DNA of 64,000 bases from a virus (IMGVR_UViG_3300045988_155182); one strand, 5' to 3'; shown: positions 1-60,332, numbered from the stretch's first letter. Notes: a model not told the origin generated them from the letters alone. Numbers and translations: made by a program.

Positions 1-83
1 TTAAACAACCTCTGTTCGCAATGCCCGGCAACACGCTGGGCATTTTCATATAGACACAATCCCTTCTGATTTACGCATACCCT

Positions 84-149
84 AAAACAATTTGTTTTCT
101 GCCTTTTGTTAATTGAGATAATAAGCCACATAAGAAAACAAATTGTTTC
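84..149 (+). promoter_or_regulatory. Two adjacent copies of the early operator palindrome (aaaacaatttgttttc at 84-99; agaaaacaaattgtttc at 133-149)
   Basis: Inverted repeat AAACAA-N-TTGTTT seen directly; the same motif recurs upstream of at least 10 genes in the window. Confidence 0.5.
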
Positions 150-161
150 GGAGTGGTTGAA

Positions 162-461
162 ATGTTGAACATTACCCAAGCCTACCAGGTGGCATTGATC
201 AGTTCATCTCATACATCAGAGGAAGATGCTCGTCGATTCATGATCGCAAGCAATGAGCTGGATTGGGTTTCGCAAATTGACGGCGGTTGTATTGTCCACG
301 CCGGGTTACAGGATGATGTCTGGAAAGACGACTTGCGTCGATATGGTATATCCGAAGGCGCGATTGCTAACATTCAGAAAGTACTTGATGTAGGCTTTGA
401 CTCTGTACATTTTGATTGTGGTGCGCCGGTCGTTGAAGGGCTTGAGTGCTGGAACTGGTAA
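162..461 (+). CDS. Hypothetical early protein (acidic, about 100 aa)
   Basis: ORF track 153..461; ATG at 162 has GGAG about 8 nt upstream; sits directly behind the operator palindrome. Confidence 0.5.
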   Translation: MLNITQAYQVALISSSHTSEEDARRFMIASNELDWVSQIDGGCIVHAGLQDDVWKDDLRRYGISEGAIANIQKVLDVGFDSVHFDCGAPVVEGLECWNW

Positions 462-506
462 CAGATATTAAAGCATTGGTAGTTTGTTTTTAGGATTATC
501 AAAGAA

Positions 507-1241
507 ATGAAAAAGTTGAAAAGTTTAGAAATCCCTGGGACTGGTTATAAATTCTTTATGGACAACGCGGAGTGTGCACCTAACGCGTTGGAAAAAATAC
601 AAAGTCTTATCAACAGCCTTACTGAAGAAGCGAAAGAACTGAAGAGCGAGGCGACAAAGGACAATACAGCTAAAATCCAATGCTTAAATCTCGTTTCTTA
701 TTGTTTATATCAAGTGTCCAAGACACTGATTAAAGGCAATATCTATTACGACGATGAAGACACCTCGACACCTGAAGAAAAAGATAGCGATGAAGAACTC
801 TATGAAGATATCTCTACTAGTGCGGGTCACGCTGCCTTCGATGCTATGGGTGAATCGTCAGGCATCAGATCATTTGTTGAACAGAACAATTCGACAATAA
901 TGATTGAGTACTGTGAACAAACAAGCTCCAAGGCCATACATGTTCTTCACGATGTTGCTGCAGGGGTTCGCTGTGAGGCTGAAGCGGTCAGAAAAGATGT
1001 ATTTGGTGCAGACAGTAATACCGTGAAAGCGTTCATCAACAGTGCTCTGCTAAATTCTTACTCAAACCTTATCGTCAATGCGGCACTATGCGCAAATTCT
1101 GGTGAAGAACACATTGTCATAACCGAAACCAAATATGAGCATCAACAGTCACCAACCATAGAAGAGGTAACTGCATTGGCTATCAAACAGGCGAGTGAAA
1201 TTAGTGATGAAATTCTCTCTCTGCTAAACAAAACTAAGTAA
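507..1241 (+). CDS. Hypothetical acidic protein (244 aa)
   Basis: ORF track; Asp/Glu-rich; no motif recognised. Confidence 0.5.
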   Translation: MKKLKSLEIPGTGYKFFMDNAECAPNALEKIQSLINSLTEEAKELKSEATKDNTAKIQCLNLVSYCLYQVSKTLIKGNIYYDDEDTSTPEEKDSDEELYEDISTSAGHAAFDAMGESSGIRSFVEQNNSTIMIEYCEQTSSKAIHVLHDVAAGVRCEAEAVRKDVFGADSNTVKAFINSALLNSYSNLIVNAALCANSGEEHIVITETKYEHQQSPTIEEVTALAIKQASEISDEILSLLNKTK

Positions 1242-1249
1242 AACATTGA

Positions 1250-2238
1250 TAATGGCGGTCACAATTTGATTCTTTTCTATAAGAATCCGTTGATCGCCAC
1301 TACTCCCCTTCCATACCCGCAATCACATCCTTAAATATCAATAAGTTATAGTTGTTTATACAATCAAGAAAACAACTGAATAACAGATCAACGAAACATC
1401 AACGCTTTCACCCGATTTGGTCTAAAAAATTGACGTTTTCACACATCACTGCTTATACCCGTAATTCTACGCAGCAGACAGCGCCACAGCGTCCAATTTT
1501 CACCACAGACGACCCAACACACTACCAACAAAAACACACGCTCAAAATCGCTCCCGTTGCGTTACACAACCATATAAACAACTTATTTTCAGGCATAACA
1601 AAACAACTAAATAACACACATGCCATTTCCAAAAACAACCAACCTCTTTATGGCAGGCTACCGAAAAGACCCACCTCTTCTCCCCAGGCTACCGGACAAC
1701 CAACCTAACTTTCACAGGCAATCCGAAAACATTCATACGCGCGATACCCACGACACGCCATTACCCAAACAGCGAAGAAACACCAGAATCACTGAACCCC
1801 CAACGAAGCCTGTAACCGCAAGGCTTCTCTCAATCCCAAAAGACACGAAACAGAACAATCACGGGAAACGCCATTACCCAACACACGAATAACTACAAAA
1901 GCCTTTCACACTCCAGACAAACAACTCAAACACAATAACGAAAGCAATCGCCCACCTGCCATTACTCCATACACGGAGAAGAACAATCACCAAAACGACG
2001 AGAACACCCCATAGAAGAACCACCGCAAAACGAACGAAACCACATACACCGACAGAGAGAACAACACACCCAATTCACCAACAGAATTAGTCGCCGTATA
2101 GAACGTTCTGGAAGGAGTGAGTATTAACGTCCATAGAGAGGTTGAGACAGATAAAACACGAATAAAACACAACATGTATAGCGAAGAAGCCAGGTATGTA
2201 TAAGTGGGGAGAGAAGGAGGGGTGTCGCCTCCTTTTTC
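1250..2238 (+). ncRNA. Candidate long non-coding transcript: strongly A+C-rich, G+T-poor tract ending at a rho-independent terminator
   Basis: Plus strand visibly dominated by A and C for about 0.8 kb; ORFs here give low-complexity T/P/Q/H/N peptides with no RBS; possible -35-like TTGATA near 1245 and an operator-like caagaaaacaa near 1365; hairpin plus T-run at 2215-2238. Confidence 0.3.
2215..2238 (+). terminator. Rho-independent terminator (aggagg-loop-cctcct + TTTTT)
   Basis: GC hairpin followed by T-run, seen directly. Confidence 0.55.
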
Positions 2239-2302
2239 GTATTTATTCAACTCCTGATTTTACCCCCCCCGTAACACCCCTACGGTCAGCCTTCGGTCCA
2301 TA

Positions 2303-2437
2303 CAGGGAAAAGGCTGCATCCCGCTACAGAAACGGCTGGGTTGCCTTCGGGGAACGGCTGGAGGTTTTCAGGGAAACGGTCGAGTTGCCTGTGTGGATTT
2401 CGGGAAAAGGCTCGATGCCGGTTCAGGAACGGTGGCG
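2303..2437. repeat. Iteron-like cluster 1: six direct repeats, consensus about cRGGRAAMGGYYG, starting near 2303, 2326, 2348, 2369, 2400, 2424
   Basis: Direct repeats at about 21-23 bp spacing (one 32 bp gap), i.e. roughly two helical turns; seen directly. Confidence 0.55.
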
Positions 2438-2745
2438 TACCGGTATAGCGAGAGGGAGAGTTGCGGCTACCCACCTGTAATGTGCGGGAAGAAGAGAGGC
2501 GCTCACGTGCAGGCGAACTTACTTACCGCTGGATTCCCTCTGAATGCCCAGCTACAGCGTAATTGTGCCAGACAGCCAACGGGTCACAATCGATTTCAGT
2601 AGGTTTTCGGGGAGATGATTATTCTGCCCACCAGCCACCTTCGGCCACTAAATCAGAATAATGTAAAAAGTGTACTCGGTACTGAACCTGAAAACTCACT
2701 GCCAAAACCACATTCACCGGAATAAAATCCTTTTTCGCCTGTGCG

Positions 2746-2786
2746 TTATTGCGATAATAACACCATCAAGAAAACAACATGTTTAA
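2746..2786 (+). promoter_or_regulatory. Conserved early promoter/operator cassette (gcgataat-aACACCatCAAGAAAACAAcaTGTTTA)
   Basis: Near-identical cassettes at about 4890-4923 and 5376-5409; GATAAT-like -10 followed by the operator palindrome. Confidence 0.5.
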
Positions 2787-2796
2787 GGATTGCTTT

Positions 2797-3126
2797 ATGT
2801 TTACAAATATCGACATCAACCAAATCAAGAAATTAACTCAAAAAGAGTTTGATCAGTTTTATGAGTTAGAAGGTTTGTCTTCCACTCTGATCAATTCAAG
2901 ATGGGTGCTGGAGCTGATGACTCGTGATGACGCACCTGCTTTGATGATTTGCGACATGGGTGAAGATGCTGACTTTATGGATATGAGCGAATTTTGTGTG
3001 GACACATACAACCGCAGCCAGAAGTACTACTTCACATGCGATAGCGAGAATGACGTTATTTCTAAGGTCTATCTTCACCTCGTCCAGCATTGGGACGTTC
3101 AGGAGTTTCTTGAAGTATTCGAGTAA
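2797..3126 (+). CDS. Hypothetical small acidic early protein
   Basis: ORF track 2779..3126; ATG at 2797 has AAGGA 7 nt upstream; Asp/Glu-rich. Confidence 0.5.
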   Translation: MFTNIDINQIKKLTQKEFDQFYELEGLSSTLINSRWVLELMTRDDAPALMICDMGEDADFMDMSEFCVDTYNRSQKYYFTCDSENDVISKVYLHLVQHWDVQEFLEVFE

Positions 3127-3251
3127 CCCCAACCAAAGCCAGCATTGCTGGCTTAATTTCTCTATAGCCGCAGGGAAGAACCTGCATATCGCTCATGCAC
3201 CTGATCAATATGCTTTGTAGCCGTTTTCTTACTGGTATTATTTACGCCATT

Positions 3252-3270
3252 GAGAAAACAAGTTGTTTAC
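3252..3270 (+). promoter_or_regulatory. Early operator palindrome (gagaaaacaagttgtttac)
   Basis: Motif family member immediately upstream of the 3280 gene. Confidence 0.45.
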
Positions 3271-3279
3271 GGAGTTGTG

Positions 3280-3591
3280 ATGAAAAAATCATTGGTTCTT
3301 GGTCTGGACAAAGACCAGAAGAGAAAAGAGAAGCCTGCGCTGGTTGCTCAATTAACTTTGCTGGACATCGTTGCCAATGGAACCTCTATTCGTCTGTTCC
3401 GTGAAACAGCGGTGTCTTTCGATAAAAACACCTTTACTCGTTATGTAATGAATGTTCGTCGCCAGCGTGGAAAAGGCTGGATGGCATTTCAAAGAATGTG
3501 GCCGGAACATCAGCTCGAACTGGCTTTGATGGAAGTTAACCGCGTGGCCCAGCAAGAAATTCAGAGAGCATCAGTGATGGCAATAGCCTGA
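3280..3591 (+). CDS. Hypothetical small basic early protein
   Basis: ORF track 3250..3591; internal ATG at 3280 preceded by GGAG. Confidence 0.5.
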   Translation: MKKSLVLGLDKDQKRKEKPALVAQLTLLDIVANGTSIRLFRETAVSFDKNTFTRYVMNVRRQRGKGWMAFQRMWPEHQLELALMEVNRVAQQEIQRASVMAIA

Positions 3592-3625
3592 TAATGTGCA
3601 AGTGGTAATTAGTCGACAGTACGAC

Positions 3626-3654
3626 AGCCCCGCCATCCTTACGGGGCTTTTTTG
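3626..3654 (+). terminator. Rho-independent terminator (agccccg-loop-cggggct + TTTTTT)
   Basis: Seen directly after the 3280..3591 gene. Confidence 0.6.
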
Positions 3655-3658
3655 TATT

Positions 3659-3674
3659 GTAAGTACATACTTAC
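3659..3674. repeat. GTAAGTA-N2-TACTTAC palindrome (first of at least 16 copies)
   Basis: gtaagtacatacttac; family recurs upstream of many genes across the window. Confidence 0.55.
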
Positions 3675-3717
3675 TATCATAGAATATAAAAATAACCAAA
3701 ACACTACGGAGAGTGAA

Positions 3718-4113
3718 ATGACCGTTAAACGCGAAAAACTGACAGTTGATGTTTACTATGCCTCTGAAACCGCCGAAGGTAAGAATGTGGCAAAAATCAC
3801 CGTTGTTACGTACAACACCGAAACTGGTGCCGAAGTCCAGGCCAGTACGATCGTGCGTAAAGGTGATGCCTCCGACGGCGAGTACGCGACTCAATACCAG
3901 TCTATTTTCGATGCAACTGACCCGCTGCTGCTGAAAATCGAGAACTACTTCCGCCAGGTTGATGAAGAGGTGTTTGAAACCATGATGAATATGGTTAACA
4001 CCGTATTCGCCTCCAACCTGAATACCAACACTGCCTGGATTGGTCAGTACGGCCTGCGCATTACCTCTGGCATTCCTGCCGACACCTTAATCCCTGAAAG
4101 CGTATTCGCTTAA
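3718..4113 (+). CDS. Hypothetical protein (132 aa)
   Basis: ORF track 3652..4113; ATG at 3718 preceded by GGAGAG; lies between a terminator and the next terminator. Confidence 0.5.
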   Translation: MTVKREKLTVDVYYASETAEGKNVAKITVVTYNTETGAEVQASTIVRKGDASDGEYATQYQSIFDATDPLLLKIENYFRQVDEEVFETMMNMVNTVFASNLNTNTAWIGQYGLRITSGIPADTLIPESVFA

Positions 4114-4121
4114 TCCTCTTT

Positions 4122-4150
4122 AAATGGCGCGTAAACCGCGCCATTTTATT
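4122..4150 (+). terminator. Rho-independent terminator (atggcgcg-taaac-cgcgccat + TTTT)
   Basis: Seen directly. Confidence 0.6.
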
Positions 4151-4157
4151 AAGCCCG

Positions 4158-4175
4158 ATAACAATTTGTTTTCTG
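4158..4175 (+). promoter_or_regulatory. Early operator palindrome (ataacaatttgttttctg)
   Basis: Motif family member upstream of the 4231 gene. Confidence 0.45.
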
Positions 4176-4230
4176 CCTTATCTGATTTGTGAAAATGATT
4201 TCACTGAAGCAACTTAATAAGGAAACCATC

Positions 4231-4605
4231 ATGGGACTTGATATCTATATCGAGACACAGCCTAAAAACGATCTGAATAACGAGGCATCCAGAAAGCAGG
4301 TTGCTTACTTCCGTAAGTTCAATGCGCTCGTTGGGTGGATGGAGCGCAACGTAGGTGAAGTCGAAAATTGTGAGCTTTTAGAATTAACGATGAATGACAT
4401 TTGTTTTCTGAAGGCTCATTTGATGCACATAAACGAAAGTAATTGCGAAGAGTACTTGCCTACCCGGGAAGGTTTTTTCTTCGGCAGTCAGGAGTACGAT
4501 GAAGGTTACTGGCATGATGTGGGGCAGTTGAAAGAGCTTGTGGAAGATCTGATTAAGAACCACGACTTTCACAATAACAGACTGACCTTCTGCGCCTGGT
4601 GGTAA
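4231..4605 (+). CDS. Hypothetical early protein
   Basis: ORF track 4189..4605; ATG at 4231 has AAGGA 7 nt upstream (the 4189 start is also possible). Confidence 0.45.
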   Translation: MGLDIYIETQPKNDLNNEASRKQVAYFRKFNALVGWMERNVGEVENCELLELTMNDICFLKAHLMHINESNCEEYLPTREGFFFGSQEYDEGYWHDVGQLKELVEDLIKNHDFHNNRLTFCAWW

Positions 4606-4607
4606 AT

Positions 4608-4751
4608 ATGGGCGATTTCAAGAAACGCCTGAAGGAAAGAGCCGAGATGGTCAGAAAGCAAAACGCCTCTTCTGTCATCAGATACGCAAGGCAGTTTAGT
4701 CGCAACAACAAATCAGTTGAGGAAAAGATCCTTAGCGTAATCGGGCGATAA
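4608..4751 (+). CDS. Small basic protein (47 aa), translationally coupled to the upstream gene
   Basis: ATG 3 nt after the upstream stop, open to TAA at 4749-4751; below the ORF-track size cutoff. Confidence 0.3.
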   Translation: MGDFKKRLKERAEMVRKQNASSVIRYARQFSRNNKSVEEKILSVIGR

Positions 4752-4756
4752 TTATT

Positions 4757-4780
4757 AAGGCCACCAGCATTGGTGGTCTT
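4757..4780 (+). terminator. Hairpin aaggccaccagcattggtggtctt (copy 1 of a repeated hairpin element)
   Basis: Near-identical hairpin at 5228-5251; no clear T-run, so it may be a processing or REP-like element rather than a terminator. Confidence 0.4.
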
Positions 4781-4889
4781 AAATGACTTTTAATAACCGA
4801 AGGTTAGTTTGAAACCTGGCTATCAACTTCCAGAACCTTTCTTGTGTATTCAGCCTGTATTAACTTCTTTTATGCCTTATCTACACTGC

Positions 4890-4923
4890 GATAATTACAC
4901 CAACAAGAAAACAACATGTTTAC
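4890..4923 (+). promoter_or_regulatory. Conserved early promoter/operator cassette (copy 2)
   Basis: cgataattacaccaacaagaaaacaacatgtttac. Confidence 0.5.
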
Positions 4924-4940
4924 GCAGTGAGGATATGCTC

Positions 4941-5222
4941 ATGACTGATTTCACCATTACCCCTAAAGCACAAAATGTATTCCTTGAATCATGGCTGGAC
5001 TTGCCGGAAACAGAACAGCAAGAAATGGATCATGTGGATTATGACGAGCAGGTAAGCACGCGATTCTTCCACTTTGAGGGATGCGTTTACGACATTGCCG
5101 ACTTCATGCGAGATGACCGCTTCCCTGAATGGCACGCAAGCTATCCACTAAACGCCTTTGCCATGCTGATGATCCGTGTGGATGATTCAGGGGATACCAT
5201 CGACATCGGTCTGCTCCACTAA
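4941..5222 (+). CDS. Hypothetical small acidic early protein (94 aa)
   Basis: ORF track 4809..5222; ATG at 4941 has GAGGA about 8 nt upstream; the upstream part of the track ORF overlaps the promoter cassette. Confidence 0.5.
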   Translation: MTDFTITPKAQNVFLESWLDLPETEQQEMDHVDYDEQVSTRFFHFEGCVYDIADFMRDDRFPEWHASYPLNAFAMLMIRVDDSGDTIDIGLLH

Positions 5223-5227
5223 AGATT

Positions 5228-5251
5228 AAGGCCACCAATGCTGGTGGCCTT
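5228..5251 (+). terminator. Hairpin aaggccaccaatgctggtggcctt (copy 2)
   Basis: Seen directly. Confidence 0.4.
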
Positions 5252-5375
5252 AAATGACCATCCTGTTTCCCGCAGGCTAAAAACACCAACCTCTTACCTC
5301 CAGGCAACCGACAAACCCACCTGTTCCCGTCCGGCTACCTCAACTTTCCACTTTGACGCCTTATTCATACAACGA

Positions 5376-5409
5376 TAATTAACACCAACAAGAAAACAAT
5401 TTGTTATTT
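5376..5409 (+). promoter_or_regulatory. Conserved early promoter/operator cassette (copy 3)
   Basis: cgataattaacaccaacaagaaaacaatttgttattt. Confidence 0.5.
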
Positions 5410-5426
5410 ACGATAAGGAATTAATC

Positions 5427-5909
5427 ATGAATTTTATCGCTACTGTAAACGCACCCGCACATGGCAATATCGCTGTAACGTTCTCTGACATTGAAAAACG
5501 AGTACTTGGTGCATGGCGCGACAATGAGACGGTAGAACTGTCAGCACAAGAAAAATGCATTATTGCACGCGACATCATTGGCAATCGTCGTTACTCGCGG
5601 GTATTTGAGAAAGCGTATGTGGTAAATTCTGGGTTCGGAACGTTCGTCTTTCCGGTGCGCTCAGGGCGATTCTGCCAGTCCAAGCTGATTGAGTTCGCTA
5701 CGCAGATTTCTGTCTGGATTAAAACTCAATCGTCGTTCAAATTTTCCGACGATGAAGCAGTATCGCAGGGGATGCGGATCGCCAACAATGCGATTAAATG
5801 CAAAAACATTACGTATACCGCTGGCGTTGATACATGGAAACTGTTTTGCGCTAACTTTATGCTGAATGTATACGCAAGCAACCGCATCCACATCCTTGAT
5901 GGCGTGTAA
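5427..5909 (+). CDS. Hypothetical protein (160 aa)
   Basis: ORF track; AAGGA upstream of the ATG. Confidence 0.55.
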   Translation: MNFIATVNAPAHGNIAVTFSDIEKRVLGAWRDNETVELSAQEKCIIARDIIGNRRYSRVFEKAYVVNSGFGTFVFPVRSGRFCQSKLIEFATQISVWIKTQSSFKFSDDEAVSQGMRIANNAIKCKNITYTAGVDTWKLFCANFMLNVYASNRIHILDGV

Positions 5910-5915
5910 CTGAGA

Positions 5916-5939
5916 AGAGGGCCAGAAACGGCCCTTTCT
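5916..5939 (+). terminator. Hairpin gagggcc-agaaac-ggccctttct
   Basis: Seen directly after the 5427..5909 gene. Confidence 0.5.
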
Positions 5940-5958
5940 CTATAGCCACCAGCTGCCG

Positions 5959-6039
5959 CAGGGAAATTTTCAGAAACGGCGAGGAACGCATTCATGAGCC
6001 GACGGGGAACGGCCAGGATTTTTTCGGGAAACGGCTGCA
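5959..6039. repeat. Iteron-like cluster 2 (cagggaaatttt, cagaaacggcgagg, cggggaacggccagg, tcgggaaacggctgc)
   Basis: Same repeat family as cluster 1; last two units about 22 bp apart. Confidence 0.5.
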
Positions 6040-6164
6040 TTCGCCTTTATATAGAAAAAACATCGGGAAGCTGGTGGAATCCAACCAGCGGTTGTCGGAC
6101 AGGTGAGCGGGGAAAATTATGATGACTTTCGTCGCCTGAGACATCCAGATTTCTTTCGTAGCGT

Positions 6165-6208
6165 AATCACATATGTGATTAAGTGGTGTGATTATGTGAA
6201 AAATCACG
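6165..6208. promoter_or_regulatory. Operator-like palindromes (aatcacatatgtgatt; tgtgattatgtgaaaaatcacg)
   Basis: Perfect 14 bp palindrome plus related half-sites in a large intergenic region; seen directly. Confidence 0.4.
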
Positions 6209-6494
6209 CGCACATAATACGCGAGCGGATACGGAACAAAACAAAATGCCGATCCGCGCCGACAATTAAACGCGGATCACATAGCAAGAATAAAAGCCAA
6301 TGATTAACCATACACCATAGCGCAATATAACGCGTTTTAAGCGCGTTAATGTGTTGAGTAATGGGTATGTACTGGTAAGGATATAAAAGCGCGTCTGTGG
6401 CGTTATTTTGGCGCTTATTTTATGTTGTTGGAGTGAGTCAAAGACAATAAAAAAGCGCCATCATTGGCGCGTTATGGTGGAAGTATTAGAAACG

Positions 6495-6529
6495 AAAAAA
6501 GCGCCCATAGTGGGCGCTCGATTTTATTT
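6495..6529. terminator. Bidirectional terminator (gcgcccatagtgggcgc flanked by A-run and T-run)
   Basis: Same 17 bp hairpin repeated at 6772-6788. Confidence 0.55.
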
Positions 6530-6754
6530 ATGTAAACTGATTTCAAATCCCATTTCTACAAACGCTTTTAACATTAAAAATATATCAGCGTCATTCACGT
6601 CTGCTTTTTTTCGCTCCTGGTCGCTCAATAAGTCAATTTTGCGCGTCGTTTCATCGATAAACTCGACTGCGCGCCCAGCGTAACCAGCGATCCCAGCGAT
6701 GCGATTAACAAAATATTCATTGCGCACGTTAACGCCAGCGATAAGAATAAACAT
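6524..6754 (-). CDS. Small hypothetical protein (76 aa) bracketed by two copies of one terminator hairpin
   Basis: ORF track; AAGGAG 7 nt upstream of the ATG on the minus strand. Confidence 0.35.
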   Translation of the reverse strand: MFILIAGVNVRNEYFVNRIAGIAGYAGRAVEFIDETTRKIDLLSDQERKKADVNDADIFLMLKAFVEMGFEISLHK

Positions 6755-6765
6755 GATTAAGCTCC

Positions 6766-6790
6766 TTAAAAGCGCCCATAGTGGGCGCCA
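6766..6790 (-). terminator. Terminator for the 6802..7452 gene (gcgcccatagtgggcgc + T-run on minus strand)
   Basis: Seen directly. Confidence 0.5.
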
Positions 6791-6801
6791 GATTCCATTA
6801 A

Positions 6802-7452
6802 TTACGCTTTGAAAGCATCAGCCAGATAGTTATAGAAATCATTTTTAATAAAGCGATATTGCTGCGTACCAGCTTTTGCGCTTCCCATTCCTTTGACTTT
6901 CTCAACAAGTCCAAGACGTTCGCAAAGATTGATAAGCTGGTTGGCTTGAGTGTATCCTGCGTCTAATTTTATTTCGTTGGCTTTTTTCGCTTCATTCATT
7001 AAATCGAAAACAGCGCCATTTGTGAACGTCTCGATCTCGTCGTTAATCATATCGATTAATGCGAATACACGAGATCCGGACATATCAGCGACGGAATAAA
7101 CACACTTTCCAGCTTTAATGGATTTAACCAGATAAACCAGTTTTTCCAGAGAATAACTGTTAGTCATTGCATCACGGAAAAAAACTTCTGGCGCTTGTTT
7201 GCTTGCTTTGATCGCATAGTAGAAAACAGAGCATAATTTTTCGTCTTCTACAGCGTTTACAACGTTGTTGATGAAGTAAGCAAGTTTAGTGGTCGCAGCT
7301 TGCATATTTGCTTTGTCTGCTTTAGTGTGCGTACCATTTTTATAATGTTCGTTATATGTTTGAGTTGCCAGATCTGCTTTTTCGCGCAGTTCATCGGATA
7401 CAATGGAAGCAGCTTCAATGATGGATTTTTTAGAAATGATAATGTTAGCCAT
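6802..7452 (-). CDS. Hypothetical protein (216 aa), AT-rich, own transcription unit
   Basis: ORF track; AT-rich upstream region 7453-7735 and terminators on both sides. Confidence 0.55.
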   Translation of the reverse strand: MANIIISKKSIIEAASIVSDELREKADLATQTYNEHYKNGTHTKADKANMQAATTKLAYFINNVVNAVEDEKLCSVFYYAIKASKQAPEVFFRDAMTNSYSLEKLVYLVKSIKAGKCVYSVADMSGSRVFALIDMINDEIETFTNGAVFDLMNEAKKANEIKLDAGYTQANQLINLCERLGLVEKVKGMGSAKAGTQQYRFIKNDFYNYLADAFKA

Positions 7453-7735
7453 GATAATTTTTCCTTATGTAAATTTAAAATTTATTGTCGTTAGCGTCTT
7501 CGCTTTCGACGAGTTCAATTATCGATATGCGAAAAAAGATTGCAAGTGTTTTTTTAAATTTTTTTGCAGGGATGAAAGTCCTAGAAATAAAAGCGAGATC
7601 GTCGAAGGTGTTCCCTAAATAAATAATCGATTCCGGCTTTAGACCTTATATATATTTAGGTTATTTGATTTATAGATATAAAGAAGTGATGTGAAAAATA
7701 ATAACCGGACTTAGCCGGTTATTAACCTTATAGAT

Positions 7736-8044
7736 TTATTGAACAGACTCTACAGCCTTACGATTGGTGTCAAATAGCGCATCAACGAACTGTGCCGATG
7801 ACTCGCTAGATTCGCAATCCAACATTGCCCGTTCTTCATTTGCCACTTTCTTACACAGTTCCACACTCTCACCTATCGCTTTTCCTGCTTTTACGGCTGC
7901 CGAAAATTGATACATGCAAACTGATACATTCTGAGACGTTGAGCACACGTCATTCATCAGCGACTGAATGACAGGCTTATAGTCCATTGCATTTGCCGCA
8001 ACTGAGCAAAGTAAAAATAATGGTGGTAACAATATCGATTTCAT
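7736..8044 (-). CDS. Secreted/periplasmic small protein with N-terminal signal peptide (MKSILLPPLFLLCSVAANA)
   Basis: ORF track; hydrophobic N-terminus with ANA cleavage-like site; several Cys residues. Confidence 0.5.
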   Translation of the reverse strand: MKSILLPPLFLLCSVAANAMDYKPVIQSLMNDVCSTSQNVSVCMYQFSAAVKAGKAIGESVELCKKVANEERAMLDCESSESSAQFVDALFDTNRKAVESVQ

Positions 8045-14278: not shown

Positions 14279-14322
14279 AGAAAACAAGTTGGTTAGCAGA
14301 TGCAGTAAACAAGTTGTTTTAG
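14279..14322 (+). promoter_or_regulatory. Double early operator (agaaaacaagttggtt ... taaacaagttgttttag)
   Basis: Motif family member upstream of the terminase small subunit gene. Confidence 0.45.
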
Positions 14323-45319: not shown

Positions 45320-45337
45320 AAGAAAACAAGTTGTTTC
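45320..45337 (+). promoter_or_regulatory. Early operator palindrome (agaaaacaagttgtttc) upstream of parA
   Basis: Motif family member. Confidence 0.45.
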
Positions 45338-49348: not shown

Positions 49349-49365
49349 AGAAAACAATTTGTTTA
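49349..49365 (+). promoter_or_regulatory. Early operator palindrome (agaaaacaatttgttta)
   Basis: Motif family member upstream of the helicase gene. Confidence 0.45.
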
Positions 49366-54908: not shown

Positions 54909-55057
54909 TTCCATACATCTCATTAGCTTTTATGGGTGGCTTCCTTGTCGGCTTCGGCATCTGTCGTGATTTAATTAAGCAGGAACTTAAAACCAAAACA
55001 CTGTGCATCGGAAAGCGTGTGTATCGGGTAGTTCATGAAACAAAGGTTAGAAAATGA
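54905..55057 (+). CDS. Small membrane protein (50 aa; starts MIPYI)
   Basis: ATG overlaps the upstream stop; one hydrophobic segment; below the ORF-track cutoff. Confidence 0.35.
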   Translation: MIPYISLAFMGGFLVGFGICRDLIKQELKTKTLCIGKRVYRVVHETKVRK

Positions 55058-55344
55058 GCAATTTAACTTCTTGGGACTGGTGGTTGGCCACCTATTTCTT
55101 AGCGGCCGGAGTCGCATTCGCCTTTTACGTAGGTCAGTTAGTCGTAAAACTGCTGCTGATTAAATTTGCCAGTCATAAACGTATCGATGATGGTCTGTGG
55201 CGTCTTGGCACCCTGGTGGAAACTCGCTACGGGCAACTTAAGGAGAACGAAACCATTACTATCCAAGCGAAACGATTCACTGCCACCATCACAAGAACAC
55301 CTAGTCGTAGAGTGGCCTTGATCAAAAAAGTCACAACCGAATAA
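55054..55344 (+). CDS. Membrane protein (96 aa)
   Basis: ORF track; N-terminal hydrophobic helix. Confidence 0.45.
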   Translation: MSNLTSWDWWLATYFLAAGVAFAFYVGQLVVKLLLIKFASHKRIDDGLWRLGTLVETRYGQLKENETITIQAKRFTATITRTPSRRVALIKKVTTE

Positions 55345-55353
55345 AATTACAAT

Positions 55354-55375
55354 GATAAGTATTTACTTACTTATC
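55354..55375. repeat. GATAAGTA-TTTACT-TACTTATC palindrome
   Basis: Seen directly. Confidence 0.5.
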
Positions 55376-56122
55376 TTTTATGTATAAGATGACTTTGTTT
55401 TCGTTGAGACGCGACTGTTTGAACTTAAATACAAGTGCAAACGAAGAAGTCTATCTGGCAGTAGCCTAATAAGCCAAACACCAGCGAGGTCAGTTTCCAG
55501 CCTCGTTACCGAAATGGGATACACTGAGCGAGTGTGATTACAGAACGCAGGAGGGAACATGAATGTTCCCTCCGATGAAGTAACAGAATGGGCGGTTGGT
55601 ATATTTTCAACTCCATATGACTCCCGGATTCTTAGCCACTGACCGCCCATCCTGTTACGTCATTTTGTTCAATTATGTCGTTTATACTGGGTTAAAAAGC
55701 GGCGACGTAGCCCGGCTGGTATGGTTAGCCAGCACACAACGTTGAGGCCATTACATTTTTATCAATTCTAAGGTTCTATTCACAGAGATACCGGCGAGCG
55801 TTGATATGTAACATGTTGGGCAAACATTCAATCGGAGTAGTGGCCTCAACGTTGTGAAGACAGGATTGTTGTGTAGGTTTAACCACTGTTGCCATTGGTG
55901 CCTGTTTTCACAACAAATGATTCCATACATCACATTGTATAAATTACAAAGTAGGTGCTGTCCTCAGAAACATCATCTACTTAAAGAGTTTGCCTTCTAC
56001 TATTGAGCGAAGTCGAAAGCGTCTGGCACTAACGAAAAGTGCAAGTAGCGGTGCGTTTCCTGGCAGAAACTAAACCGTCGCGATTGGCACTGTTGAGTAA
56101 TGAATACAGGCAGTGCTGAATT

Positions 56123-56197
56123 GATGGTGTAGCTCAGCGGTAGAGCAGTTGGCTGTTAACCAACTGGTCGGTGGTTCGAATCCACCCACCATCGCCA
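56123..56197 (+). tRNA. tRNA-Asn (anticodon GTT)
   Basis: Acceptor stem gatggtg/caccatc, anticodon loop cTGTTAa, T-loop GGTTCGAATCC, encoded CCA. Confidence 0.8.
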
Positions 56198-56199
56198 AT

Positions 56200-56275
56200 G
56201 CCGGTTTAGCTCAGTTGGTAGAGCGCCTGCCTTGTAAGCAGGATGTCAGCGGTTCGAGTCCGTTAACCGGCACCA
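56200..56275 (+). tRNA. tRNA-Thr (anticodon TGT)
   Basis: Acceptor stem gccggtt/aaccggc, anticodon loop cTTGTAa, T-loop GGTTCGAGTCC, encoded CCA. Confidence 0.8.
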
Positions 56276-56498
56276 ATACAACGATAAGATCATTACGGTT
56301 AATCGTCGTTCATGTGCACAATGACTGGTCGAAAGGTAGTGATCTTACCGTTGTGGTGGATTCGCAGACTGATGCGATAGCTTTCTTGGATGTTAGGGAA
56401 ATGCGGCCGCAAATCTTCCCTTTCGCGAGCGGTGATCGTCCGTAGTCCTAATTGGCTGCACCGTATGCCGGAGATTCAGTACCGGCCACCACAACGGC

Positions 56499-56585
56499 CG
56501 GAGAGTAGGGAGCATGGTGCTCAAGCGGTCTTGAAAACCGTCCCATTGCGCAAGCGATGATGGTTCGATTCCATTACTCTCCGCC
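56499..56585 (+). tRNA. tRNA-Ser (anticodon TGA), type II with long variable arm
   Basis: Acceptor stem ggagagt/actctcc, anticodon loop cTTGAAa, long variable arm, T-loop GGTTCGATTCC, encoded CCA. Confidence 0.7.
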
Positions 56586-60251: not shown

Positions 60252-60317
60252 CCCCTCTTCTCCCTGCGCGAATGGCTTAGTTCCCTGTTCGCGCAGTGCT
60301 ACATTAAACACACTAGT

Positions 60318-60332
60318 AAATAATTTGTTTTC
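60318..60332 (+). promoter_or_regulatory. Operator half-site variant (aaataatttgttttc)
   Basis: Motif family member upstream of the vWA gene. Confidence 0.35.

Follow-up and report, generated by a model that had tools for sequence, protein, structure and literature searches.

Small acidic proteins from putative repressor-gated cassettes of an SSU5-like phage-plasmid as candidate inhibitors of host proteins

The viral sequence IMGVR_UViG_3300045988_155182, analysed here as a single stretch of 64,000 nucleotides (the window), derives from an SSU5-like phage-plasmid and carries, close to its first base, three small genes for strongly acidic proteins, referred to as open reading frames (ORFs) A, C and H. 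Each of the three lies behind a copy of the same promoter and palindromic site, each is silent in lysogens, and the content of the cassette array differs among related elements. The explanation that best accommodates these observations, to which we assign a probability of about 0.4, is that the region forms an array of repressor-gated cassettes encoding stoichiometric inhibitors of host proteins, with defence and DNA-handling proteins as the prime suspects.

The element and its three acidic genes

Megablast comparison of window bases 1-8000 assigns the element to the SSU5 phage-plasmid group. Escherichia phage Cyrano (OV696614, also known as pLF82) matches this region at 97.6% identity over 97% of the query, and identity of about 98% is also found with many non-mobilizable plasmids from E. 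coli and Shigella, 100-120 kb in size; one relative whose record was inspected, NZ_CP061531, is typed as IncFIB. Elements from Klebsiella, Salmonella (SSU5), Yersinia, Enterobacter and Citrobacter give partial and weaker matches. The element is typed as non-mobilizable in PLSDB and has no relaxase. Its methionyl-tRNA synthetase gene (locus L001, 967-3000) lies immediately upstream of window position 1, and the 6 kb that follow this position are annotated solely as hypothetical proteins. A first-pass annotation made from the sequence had proposed three small acidic genes in this region, and all three are present where it placed them:

162-461, plus strand: ORF A, 99 amino acids (aa), Asp+Glu 16.2%, Lys+Arg 6.1%, net charge -10, isoelectric point (pI) 4.32; Pfam DUF5983, phrog_5003
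2797-3126, plus strand: ORF C, 109 aa, Asp+Glu 20.2%, net charge -14, pI 4.21; phrog_7645
4941-5222, plus strand: ORF H, 93 aa, Asp+Glu 21.5%, net charge -15, pI 4.11; phrog_1845

ORFs A, C and H are real, conserved genes: a PHROG family match spans the full length of each, and their start codons are backed by the spacing of the ribosome-binding site (RBS) and by the N-termini of homologues. The starts of ORF C (2797) and ORF H (4941) coincide with those in RefSeq, and that of ORF A (162) with the Cyrano annotation. Longer alternative starts at 2779, 4809/4935 and 153 are excluded by the same RBS spacing and homologue N-termini, while sequence conservation, the ratio of non-synonymous to synonymous substitution rates (dN/dS) and the PHROG and Pfam matches rule out spurious reading frames.

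Lysine and arginine together account for 5-7% of residues across the three proteins. In a ranking of 69 rough, non-overlapping ORF calls made over the whole window, ORF H is first, ORF C second and ORF A fourth in net negative charge per residue, the window medians being a net charge of -1.8 per 100 aa and 13.6% Asp+Glu. Because their Asp+Glu content exceeds the 95th percentile of the window distribution (19.7%), ORFs C and H are truly rich in these residues; the acidity of ORF A (16.2% Asp+Glu) comes chiefly from its scarcity of Lys and Arg. The earlier description of all three as strongly Asp/Glu-rich proteins of about 95-110 aa is thus accurate for C and H and needs amending for A. Pairwise profile-profile comparison of the three families detected no relation (probability 1% or less), so the genes are not paralogues; what they have in common is composition, size and regulatory context, with separate ancestries.

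A shared module of promoter and putative operator

The palindrome AGAAAACAAnnTGTTT, accompanied by an extended -10 promoter, stands upstream of each of ORFs A, C and H. The regulatory elements of these cassettes and the palindromic sites of the window are as follows:

85-148, plus strand: regulatory region of cassette A-B, with palindromic copies at 85-100 and 133-148 around the extended -10 element TGAGATAAT (114-122)
150-153: RBS of ORF A, GGAG, 8 nucleotides (nt) 5' of the start at 162, read from the sequence
2717-2792, plus strand: promoter-operator of cassette C, with extended -10 element TGCGATAAT at 2750-2758, palindromic site at 2769-2784 and RBS AAGGA at 2785-2789
4854-4929, plus strand: promoter-operator of cassette H, with -10 element TGCGATAAT, palindromic site at 4906-4921 and RBS GAGGA at 4928-4932
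85-100, 133-148, 2769-2784, 3253-3268, 4159-4174, 4906-4921, 5391-5406, 14279-14319, 45321-45336, 49349-49364 and 60315-60330: palindromic sites in the window

A pattern search with the motif AGAAAACAANNTGTTT, allowing up to two mismatches, returned 20 matches that represent about 11 distinct sites in the window, against 1.17 expected by chance and a maximum of 5 in any of 100 shuffles. The sites lie 12-21 nt 5' of the start codons of ORFs A, C, D, H and I, and one is also found upstream of ORF F. At a fixed spacing, the palindrome sits about 10-12 nt 3' of a GATAAT-type -10 element, which at A, C and H has the extended form (TGnGATAAT). A repeat finder recovered the promoter-operator unit as a 55-nt repeat family with four copies, and the modules of C and H are 75% identical over 76 nt.

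The palindromic form AAACAA-NN-TTGTTT is what would be expected of a site for a dimeric repressor, and the element is most simply viewed as a putative operator, at which a repressor bound just 3' of the -10 element could block the initiation of transcription. The full set of sites is probably the regulon of the element's master repressor, with the homologues of CYRAN_45 and CYRAN_114 as candidate binding proteins. Copies of the palindrome also stand 5' of parA, cobT and the gene of the replicative helicase, and two of them precede terS. This distribution marks it as a control element of the genome as a whole and rules out a role as an early-specific operator. The statement in the first-pass annotation that each gene sits behind an early operator consequently stands as regards the presence of the site before A, C and H, and falls as regards its early specificity.

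Expression in LF82 lysogens

RNA sequencing data from LF82 were re-analysed for Cyrano by Misson et al. 2023 (PMC9928086, S1 Table), where the counterparts of ORFs A, C and H are CYRAN_101, CYRAN_105 and CYRAN_110, respectively. In overnight lysogens grown in lysogeny broth (LB), their normalised counts are 7.5 (A), 12.8 (C) and 6.7 (H), alongside reference values of 7.1 for terS, 7.4 for the major capsid gene and 95.8 for the putative repressor CYRAN_45 (PMC9928086); none of the three is in the list of lysogeny-expressed genes from the same data. In the macrophage series, transcripts rise between the LB baseline and MB1 by about 4.3 (C), 3.1 (H) and 1.9 (A) log2 units, the shift of terS and the major capsid gene at MB1 is about 1 log2, and the capsid gene rises strongly only at MB6 (PMC9928086). 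Ciprofloxacin induces Cyrano 39-fold (PMC9928086). The behaviour of A, C and H fits repression in the prophage and a switch-on ahead of the late genes, and would be compatible with early timing upon infection. Unlike their cassette neighbours, ORFs B and G are each transcribed at about six times the local background in LF82 lysogens (PMC9928086), and may have promoters of their own and a role in lysogeny.

ORF A, a DUF5983 protein

ORF A passes the Pfam threshold for DUF5983 (PF19419), scoring 42.8 bits against a cutoff of 27 (E 6.9e-11), and its residues 12-99 align with positions 3-90 of the 90-position profile, so that the whole domain is present in the C-terminal part of the protein. Pfam also confirms DUF5983 in SSU5_105, in a pOXA-48 protein and in an IncHI homologue, at 76-80 bits. 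Together with ORF A, these proteins align end to end at 34-45% identity, share a conserved C-terminal L..W.W motif and are all acidic (pI 4.3-4.6). The start assigned to ORF A in RefSeq, at position 240 (73 aa), was rejected; it truncates the Pfam domain, and the Cyrano start at 162 is therefore preferred.

A tblastn search located homologues of ORF A on 2,301 plasmids, 1,663 of which are conjugative. In a pOXA-48-type IncL plasmid, the DUF5983 gene lies directly 3' of ssb and two genes away from mobA/traI, within a cluster that also includes an antirestriction protein, DUF1380, Hha and DUF4942. In the survey of plasmid leading regions by Samuel et al. 2024 (PMC11541004, supplementary file 3), DUF5983 is family 72 of the top 100, with 618 members, a median position of 2 from oriT, a false discovery rate p of 6.6e-199, and no match to the anti-CRISPR and anti-restriction sets; DUF1380 is family 7, and DUF4942 corresponds to families 24 and 76 (PMC11541004).

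Comparable associations are found among the relatives of the present element. In SSU5, the DUF5983 gene lies directly 3' of a protein annotated as DUF1380, with the same palindrome upstream (SSU5 locus 1396-1949); a Pfam search at E <= 0.01 does not recover this DUF1380 annotation. The array of the Enterobacter element pCP102 begins with a gene annotated as DUF4942 (pCP102 locus 1-285). The window itself does not have a leading-region location, since the element is non-mobilizable and carries no relaxase, and it is only the homologues of ORF A that are so placed. Judged from these sequence neighbourhoods, the family context of ORF A appears to be the establishment region. A search of the literature turned up no study on the function of DUF5983 or the pOXA-48 homologue.

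ORF C, a lineage-restricted protein

ORF C corresponds to phrog_7645 (E 5.7e-74, positions 1-109 of 109) and ORF H to phrog_1845 (E 7.8e-59, positions 1-93 of 93), both of which are unannotated sequence clusters whose membership is uninformative on mechanism. Homologues of ORF C are present on 229 plasmids, nearly all from Escherichia or Shigella and at least 90% identical. A single homologue, at 33% identity, is found in pCP102, and a profile search of a large protein database adds only three clusters, at 28-32% identity, of which those on long contigs belong to elements of up to about 110 kb; the family is restricted to SSU5-like elements. Every member has a net charge of -14 to -15, and about 70% of residues differ between its two subgroups. 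ORF C has no match in Pfam, NCBIfam or PDB, and its AlphaFold2 model, built from a shallow alignment of 5 sequences, was unusable, with a predicted local distance difference test (pLDDT) score of 47. Literature searches with the ORF accessions and PHROG numbers found nothing.

ORF H, a widespread beta-rich protein

Close homologues of ORF H (51-100% identity) occur on 758 plasmids from Klebsiella, Escherichia, Citrobacter, Enterobacter, Yersinia, Salmonella and Cronobacter. An exhaustive HMMER profile search extends the family to 75 representatives at E <= 0.001, and all 59 of the 59 aligned full-length relatives match phrog_1845. No Pfam match was obtained for these 59 relatives, nor any PDB sequence match for ORF H or its family profile. 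Members are also encoded in phages of Edwardsiella, Vibrio, Marinobacter, Pseudomonas and Rhodococcus, always within runs of small hypothetical genes, and no conserved neighbour was found across distant loci; ORF H is a single-gene module. The comparison with SSU5 (80% identity) gives a dN/dS of 0.12, which indicates purifying selection, and among the proteins of units A, D, E, H and I, ORF H is the best conserved between the two elements.

An AlphaFold2 model of ORF H based on the alignment of 59 relatives reached a pLDDT of 88.3 and a predicted template modelling score of 0.72. The predicted structure is compact and mostly beta, with a short acidic helix-loop at residues 20-37, and its comparison with solved structures gave no fold match, including to Ugi-type, Arn, anti-CRISPR (Acr), Ocr and ArdA proteins. 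The median pI of the family is 4.59, with values below 5 in 47 of the 59 relatives, and eight acidic columns are conserved (D20, E25, E28, D30, D35, E36, D54 and D85), six of them within residues 20-36.

Many homologues of ORF H in GenBank and RefSeq bear the label "ABC transporter", which was rejected as a propagated misannotation: the protein has 93 aa, no Pfam ABC_tran, membrane or other domain, and a prediction as a small, soluble, beta-rich protein. Some relatives differ in architecture. Variant P0043 (98 aa, on a contig of about 107 kb) is a chimera that joins an unrelated N-terminal half to the conserved C-terminal half, and P0054, P0060 and P0066 are longer proteins (155-197 aa) with the ORF H domain at the C-terminus. 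One such C-terminal domain comes from a Citrobacter MOBH plasmid of 290 kb, where its gene is part of a long series of small genes (locus L010, 6671-7264).

A mosaic array of self-contained cassettes

The genes surrounding ORFs A, C and H are organised in units of the same kind, and the further features of the array are listed below:

507-1241, plus strand: ORF B, downstream partner of ORF A in the A-B unit; acidic protein of 244 aa (pI 4.65) with a coiled-coil annotation
about 1253-1299: hairpin after ORF B, -19.1 kcal/mol, z -4.5
3136-3154, plus strand: hairpin after ORF C, 8-bp stem, -12.4 kcal/mol, z -3.5
3213-4751, plus strand: intervening cassettes D, E and F-G, all in PHROG families without assigned function
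3280-3591, plus strand: ORF D, basic, pI 10.5, putative operator at 3253-3268, terminator downstream
downstream of ORF D: hairpin with a uridine run (U-run), a classic terminator, -21.2 kcal/mol, z -2.3
3718-4113, plus strand: ORF E, pI 4.4, downstream hairpin of -15.2 kcal/mol, z -3.9
4231-4605 and 4608-4751, plus strand: ORFs F and G, palindromic site at 4159-4174; ORF G has 47 aa and is very basic, pI 11
4755-4782, plus strand: hairpin after ORF G, 12-bp stem, -17.4 kcal/mol, z -4.4
5226-5253, plus strand: hairpin after ORF H, 12-bp stem, -20.1 kcal/mol, z -4.9, no U-run on the plus strand
5351-5909, plus strand: cassette I, palindromic site at 5391-5406; ORF I at 5427-5909, 160 aa, basic
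about 5912-5940: hairpin after ORF I, -17.7 kcal/mol, z -4.3

Hairpins follow most of the units, and the region can therefore be described as a series of self-contained cassettes, namely [A-B], [C], [D], [E], [F-G], [H] and [I]. No significant hairpin is found 3' of ORF A (-6.2 kcal/mol, z -1.6), because A and B form one unit whose hairpin follows B, and the two genes are probably co-transcribed. Of the three acidic genes said earlier to be mostly followed by a hairpin, C and H fit the description, whereas A is separated from its hairpin by ORF B. The 28-nt hairpins after ORFs G and H are reverse complements of each other except for one mismatch, with an identical stem and an inverted loop; as they lack a U-run on the plus strand, they may be bidirectional terminators or copies of a small mobile palindrome.

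Comparison with related elements reveals that cassettes have been replaced and shuffled. In SSU5, the slot of ORF C behind the same palindrome is occupied by two unrelated acidic ORFs of 71 and 72 aa (pI 4.4 and 4.3). In pCP102, the cassettes follow the order D-C-E-H-A-I, and ORFs B, F and G have no match in the SSU5 or pCP102 loci. The array is therefore a mosaic in which cassettes are gained, lost and moved. Acidity extends beyond the three genes discussed here, ORFs B, E and F having pI values of 4.4-4.9.

Other features of the window

Between positions 1250 and 2200 there are about 900 bases without a credible ORF, strongly A+C-rich on the plus strand and without an Rfam match, and bases 1-2000 as a whole have an AT skew of 0.17 and a GC skew of -0.13. 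An Rfam search of window 1-8000 likewise gave no match. CYRAN_103, which corresponds to the window ORF at 1352-1708, gives a signal at the detection floor in the lysogen RNA sequencing data. Two sets of iteron-like direct repeats bracket the cassette array on either side, and could be binding sites of a replication or partition protein. The first, at 1632-1728 and 5251-5314, consists of a unit of about 30 nt (..CCAACCTCTT..CAGGCTACCG..) in 3 and 2 tandem copies, and the second, at 2305-2432 and 5998-6056, of GGGAA(A/C)GGCT-type units. Elsewhere, the Cyrano annotation places tRNA-Asn, tRNA-Thr and tRNA-Ser genes together with cobT/cobS-like genes at about 55000-56500 of the window.

Proposed function and alternative explanations

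According to the explanation that we favour, the accessory arm of this SSU5-like phage-plasmid would hold a mosaic array of independent transcription units, each with a sigma-70 promoter of the extended -10 type, followed by a palindromic repressor site abutting the RBS, then one or two small ORFs and finally a hairpin. Binding of a repressor of the phage-plasmid to AGAAAACAAnnTGTTT throughout the genome would keep these units off in the plasmid-prophage state. Where repression is absent, either on entry into a new cell or on SOS induction, the units would be switched on, and A, C and H would be produced as soluble, strongly acidic proteins of independent evolutionary origin. They would then bind host proteins stoichiometrically and inhibit those that endanger the establishment or the lytic growth of the element; nucleic-acid-binding defence or repair proteins, engaged competitively by a negatively charged surface, would be the likeliest targets. 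From this context, an anti-defence or host-inhibitor role is plausible for all three. The first-pass suggestion that these genes are candidate anti-defence factors retains the support of their acidity, their silence in the prophage, the turnover of the cassettes and the leading-region family of ORF A; it is not backed by a match to a known anti-defence family. Searches of A, C and H against Pfam and NCBIfam at E up to 1 gave DUF5983 only, with no Ocr, ArdA, KlcA or other anti-defence family, and PDB sequence searches with C, H and the family profile of H gave no match to a solved anti-restriction or anti-defence member.

Several observations weigh against an inhibitor function. The only anti-defence gene that DefenseFinder models recognise in SSU5-group elements is Rad, present in a minority of them (bioRxiv 2025.09.12.675607), and no functional data were found for the A, C or H families. 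Ocr contains 34 acidic and 6 basic residues out of 116, which amounts to 29% acidic residues and a net charge of -28 (PMC3439906), and the acid content of A, C and H, at 16-21.5%, is well under this value. Within the ORF H family, net charge reaches 0 and pI rises to 6.7, so charge is not strictly required, and the spread of the family from Proteobacteria to Actinobacteria fits a phage-intrinsic role equally with a universal host target. The promoters concerned share their palindrome with terS and parA, which means that it defines no early class, and the RNA sequencing data come from bulk, stressed lysogens rather than from a synchronous infection. For ORF A in particular, DUF5983 has been classed as glyoxalase/bleomycin-resistance-like, a hint of small-molecule binding (bioRxiv 2024.01.30.577995), and its genes lie consistently just 3' of cbtA toxin genes in CP4-44-type islands (PMC10790755; bioRxiv 2026.06.09.728211).

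The last association, together with the presence of several toxin-antitoxin modules on the element, could point to ORF A as a component of a toxin-antitoxin-associated or stress module. We regard this as very improbable: no cbtA/cbeA-like gene lies beside ORF A here, in SSU5 or in pOXA-48, DUF5983 tracks the leading region in plasmids, and ORF A is silent in lysogens, in which toxin-antitoxin genes are expressed at 9-60 times the background (PMC9928086). It is also conceivable that the acidity is incidental, and that A, C and H belong to the common run of small phage accessory proteins, their low pI being a compositional trait without bearing on mechanism. The acidic neighbours B, E and F, the many acidic structural and replication proteins in the window and the tolerance of the ORF H family for near-neutral relatives would all agree with such a trait. 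It is nevertheless improbable, given the position of A, C and H in the extreme tail of the 69 genes, the constancy of charge in the ORF C family despite a 70% change in sequence, the eight acidic columns kept across the divergent ORF H family, and the equally acidic replacement cargo that SSU5 carries in the slot of ORF C. A special case of the favoured explanation is that the three proteins are true DNA mimics, with acidic side chains that would stand in for the phosphates of DNA and fill the DNA-binding groove of a restriction, BREX, CRISPR or RecBCD-type enzyme. Their low pI, few basic residues and size near that of small mimics suit this idea, as do the conserved net charge of the ORF C family and the conserved acidic helix-loop predicted in ORF H. 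Moreover, known DNA mimics diverge extremely in sequence and fold (PMC3902945), and negative searches therefore do not refute mimicry. We still consider it quite unlikely, in view of an acid content well below that of Ocr, the near-neutral charge of some ORF H relatives, and a model of ORF H that is mostly beta-sheet, unlike any solved mimic.

A broader alternative holds that A, C and H serve the element's own life cycle instead of the evasion of defence, for example as an antirepressor, in the case of the lineage-restricted ORF C, or as accessory factors in replication, partition, recombination or the takeover of host transcription or division. A precedent would be the antirepressors of P1- and 186-type phages, small acidic proteins with DNA-binding domains as their targets. 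The regulatory site held in common with terS, parA, the helicase and cobT agrees with a function of this type, the restriction of ORF C to SSU5-like elements is what would be expected of the partner of a lineage-specific regulator, and the status of ORF H as a highly conserved core gene is less typical of fast-turnover anti-defence genes. However, ORF H is found in phages with unrelated regulation and replication and has no conserved partner, the family of ORF A resides mainly on conjugative plasmids and genomic islands rather than in phages, and SSU5 carries unrelated genes in the slot of ORF C, so that the function of ORF C is dispensable or replaceable. On balance, we judge a life-cycle role to be somewhat unlikely, and retain the inhibition of host proteins as the preferred explanation.

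Significance

Phage-plasmids of the SSU5 group occur commonly in clinical E. coli, Shigella, Salmonella Typhi, Klebsiella and Yersinia pestis, yet the tools now available recognise hardly any anti-defence genes among their sequences. If A, C and H inhibit host immunity, they would help to explain the establishment of these elements across genera and would extend the catalogues of anti-defence genes; since DefenseFinder finds only Rad in the SSU5 group, any anti-defence function would make them new families. Because DUF5983 is common to pOXA-48-type and IncHI plasmids, a function assigned to ORF A would transfer directly to major resistance plasmids. A more far-reaching possibility, which we hold to be unlikely, is that the repressor-gated array of SSU5-like elements constitutes an "establishment island", a functional and partly evolutionary counterpart of the plasmid leading region, with A, C and H as three new anti-defence families and ORF H as a previously unseen beta-rich inhibitor fold distributed over phages of Proteobacteria and Actinobacteria.

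The present analysis adds the link between ORF A and the leading region, the wide distribution of ORF H and its confident model without a solved relative, the architecture and turnover of the cassettes and the genome-wide nature of the presumed operator. As a compact, well-predicted and widespread phage domain without a structural relative, ORF H is tractable for structural and interaction work. Should A, C and H prove to be ordinary accessory genes, the finding would be routine; they are better seen as a worthwhile shortlist for experimental screening than as a surprising discovery.

Comparison with known systems

ORFs A, C and H resemble T7 Ocr and ArdA in being small, soluble, acidic proteins with few basic residues, encoded as single-gene modules and probably placed for first expression when the element enters a cell. 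They differ in having no similarity of sequence or fold to either protein and in their net charges of -10 to -15, as against -28 for Ocr; moreover, the dimers formed by Ocr and ArdA are elongated and helical, in contrast to the compact, mostly beta model of ORF H. With inhibitors such as AcrIIA4, AcrIF2 and the Ugi type they share a length of about 85-95 aa, a low pI and a location as stand-alone genes in variable phage regions. Unlike these, they show no structural match, and no adjacent aca-type regulator was recognised in the array; no DefenseFinder match to an anti-CRISPR has been reported in SSU5-group elements.

As a full-length member of its family, ORF A is comparable to the YeeW/Aec77-type DUF5983 proteins of CP4-44-like islands and to the genes that follow ssb in IncL and IncHI plasmids. 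In contrast to those genes, it is carried by a phage-plasmid that is not conjugative, downstream of a putative repressor site of this element and away from any oriT, and its neighbours here include no ssb, psiB, ardA, klcA or cbtA gene. The array also differs from the leading-region anti-defence islands described by Samuel et al. (Nature 2024) in lacking an oriT and a relaxase and in relying on predicted sigma-70 promoters combined with a putative repressor palindrome. It nonetheless resembles those islands in its co-directional arrangement of small genes, its mosaic content and its probable expression on entry, and the DUF5983 gene found here, like the genes annotated as DUF1380 and DUF4942 in the SSU5 and pCP102 arrays, belongs to the top 100 families of leading regions.

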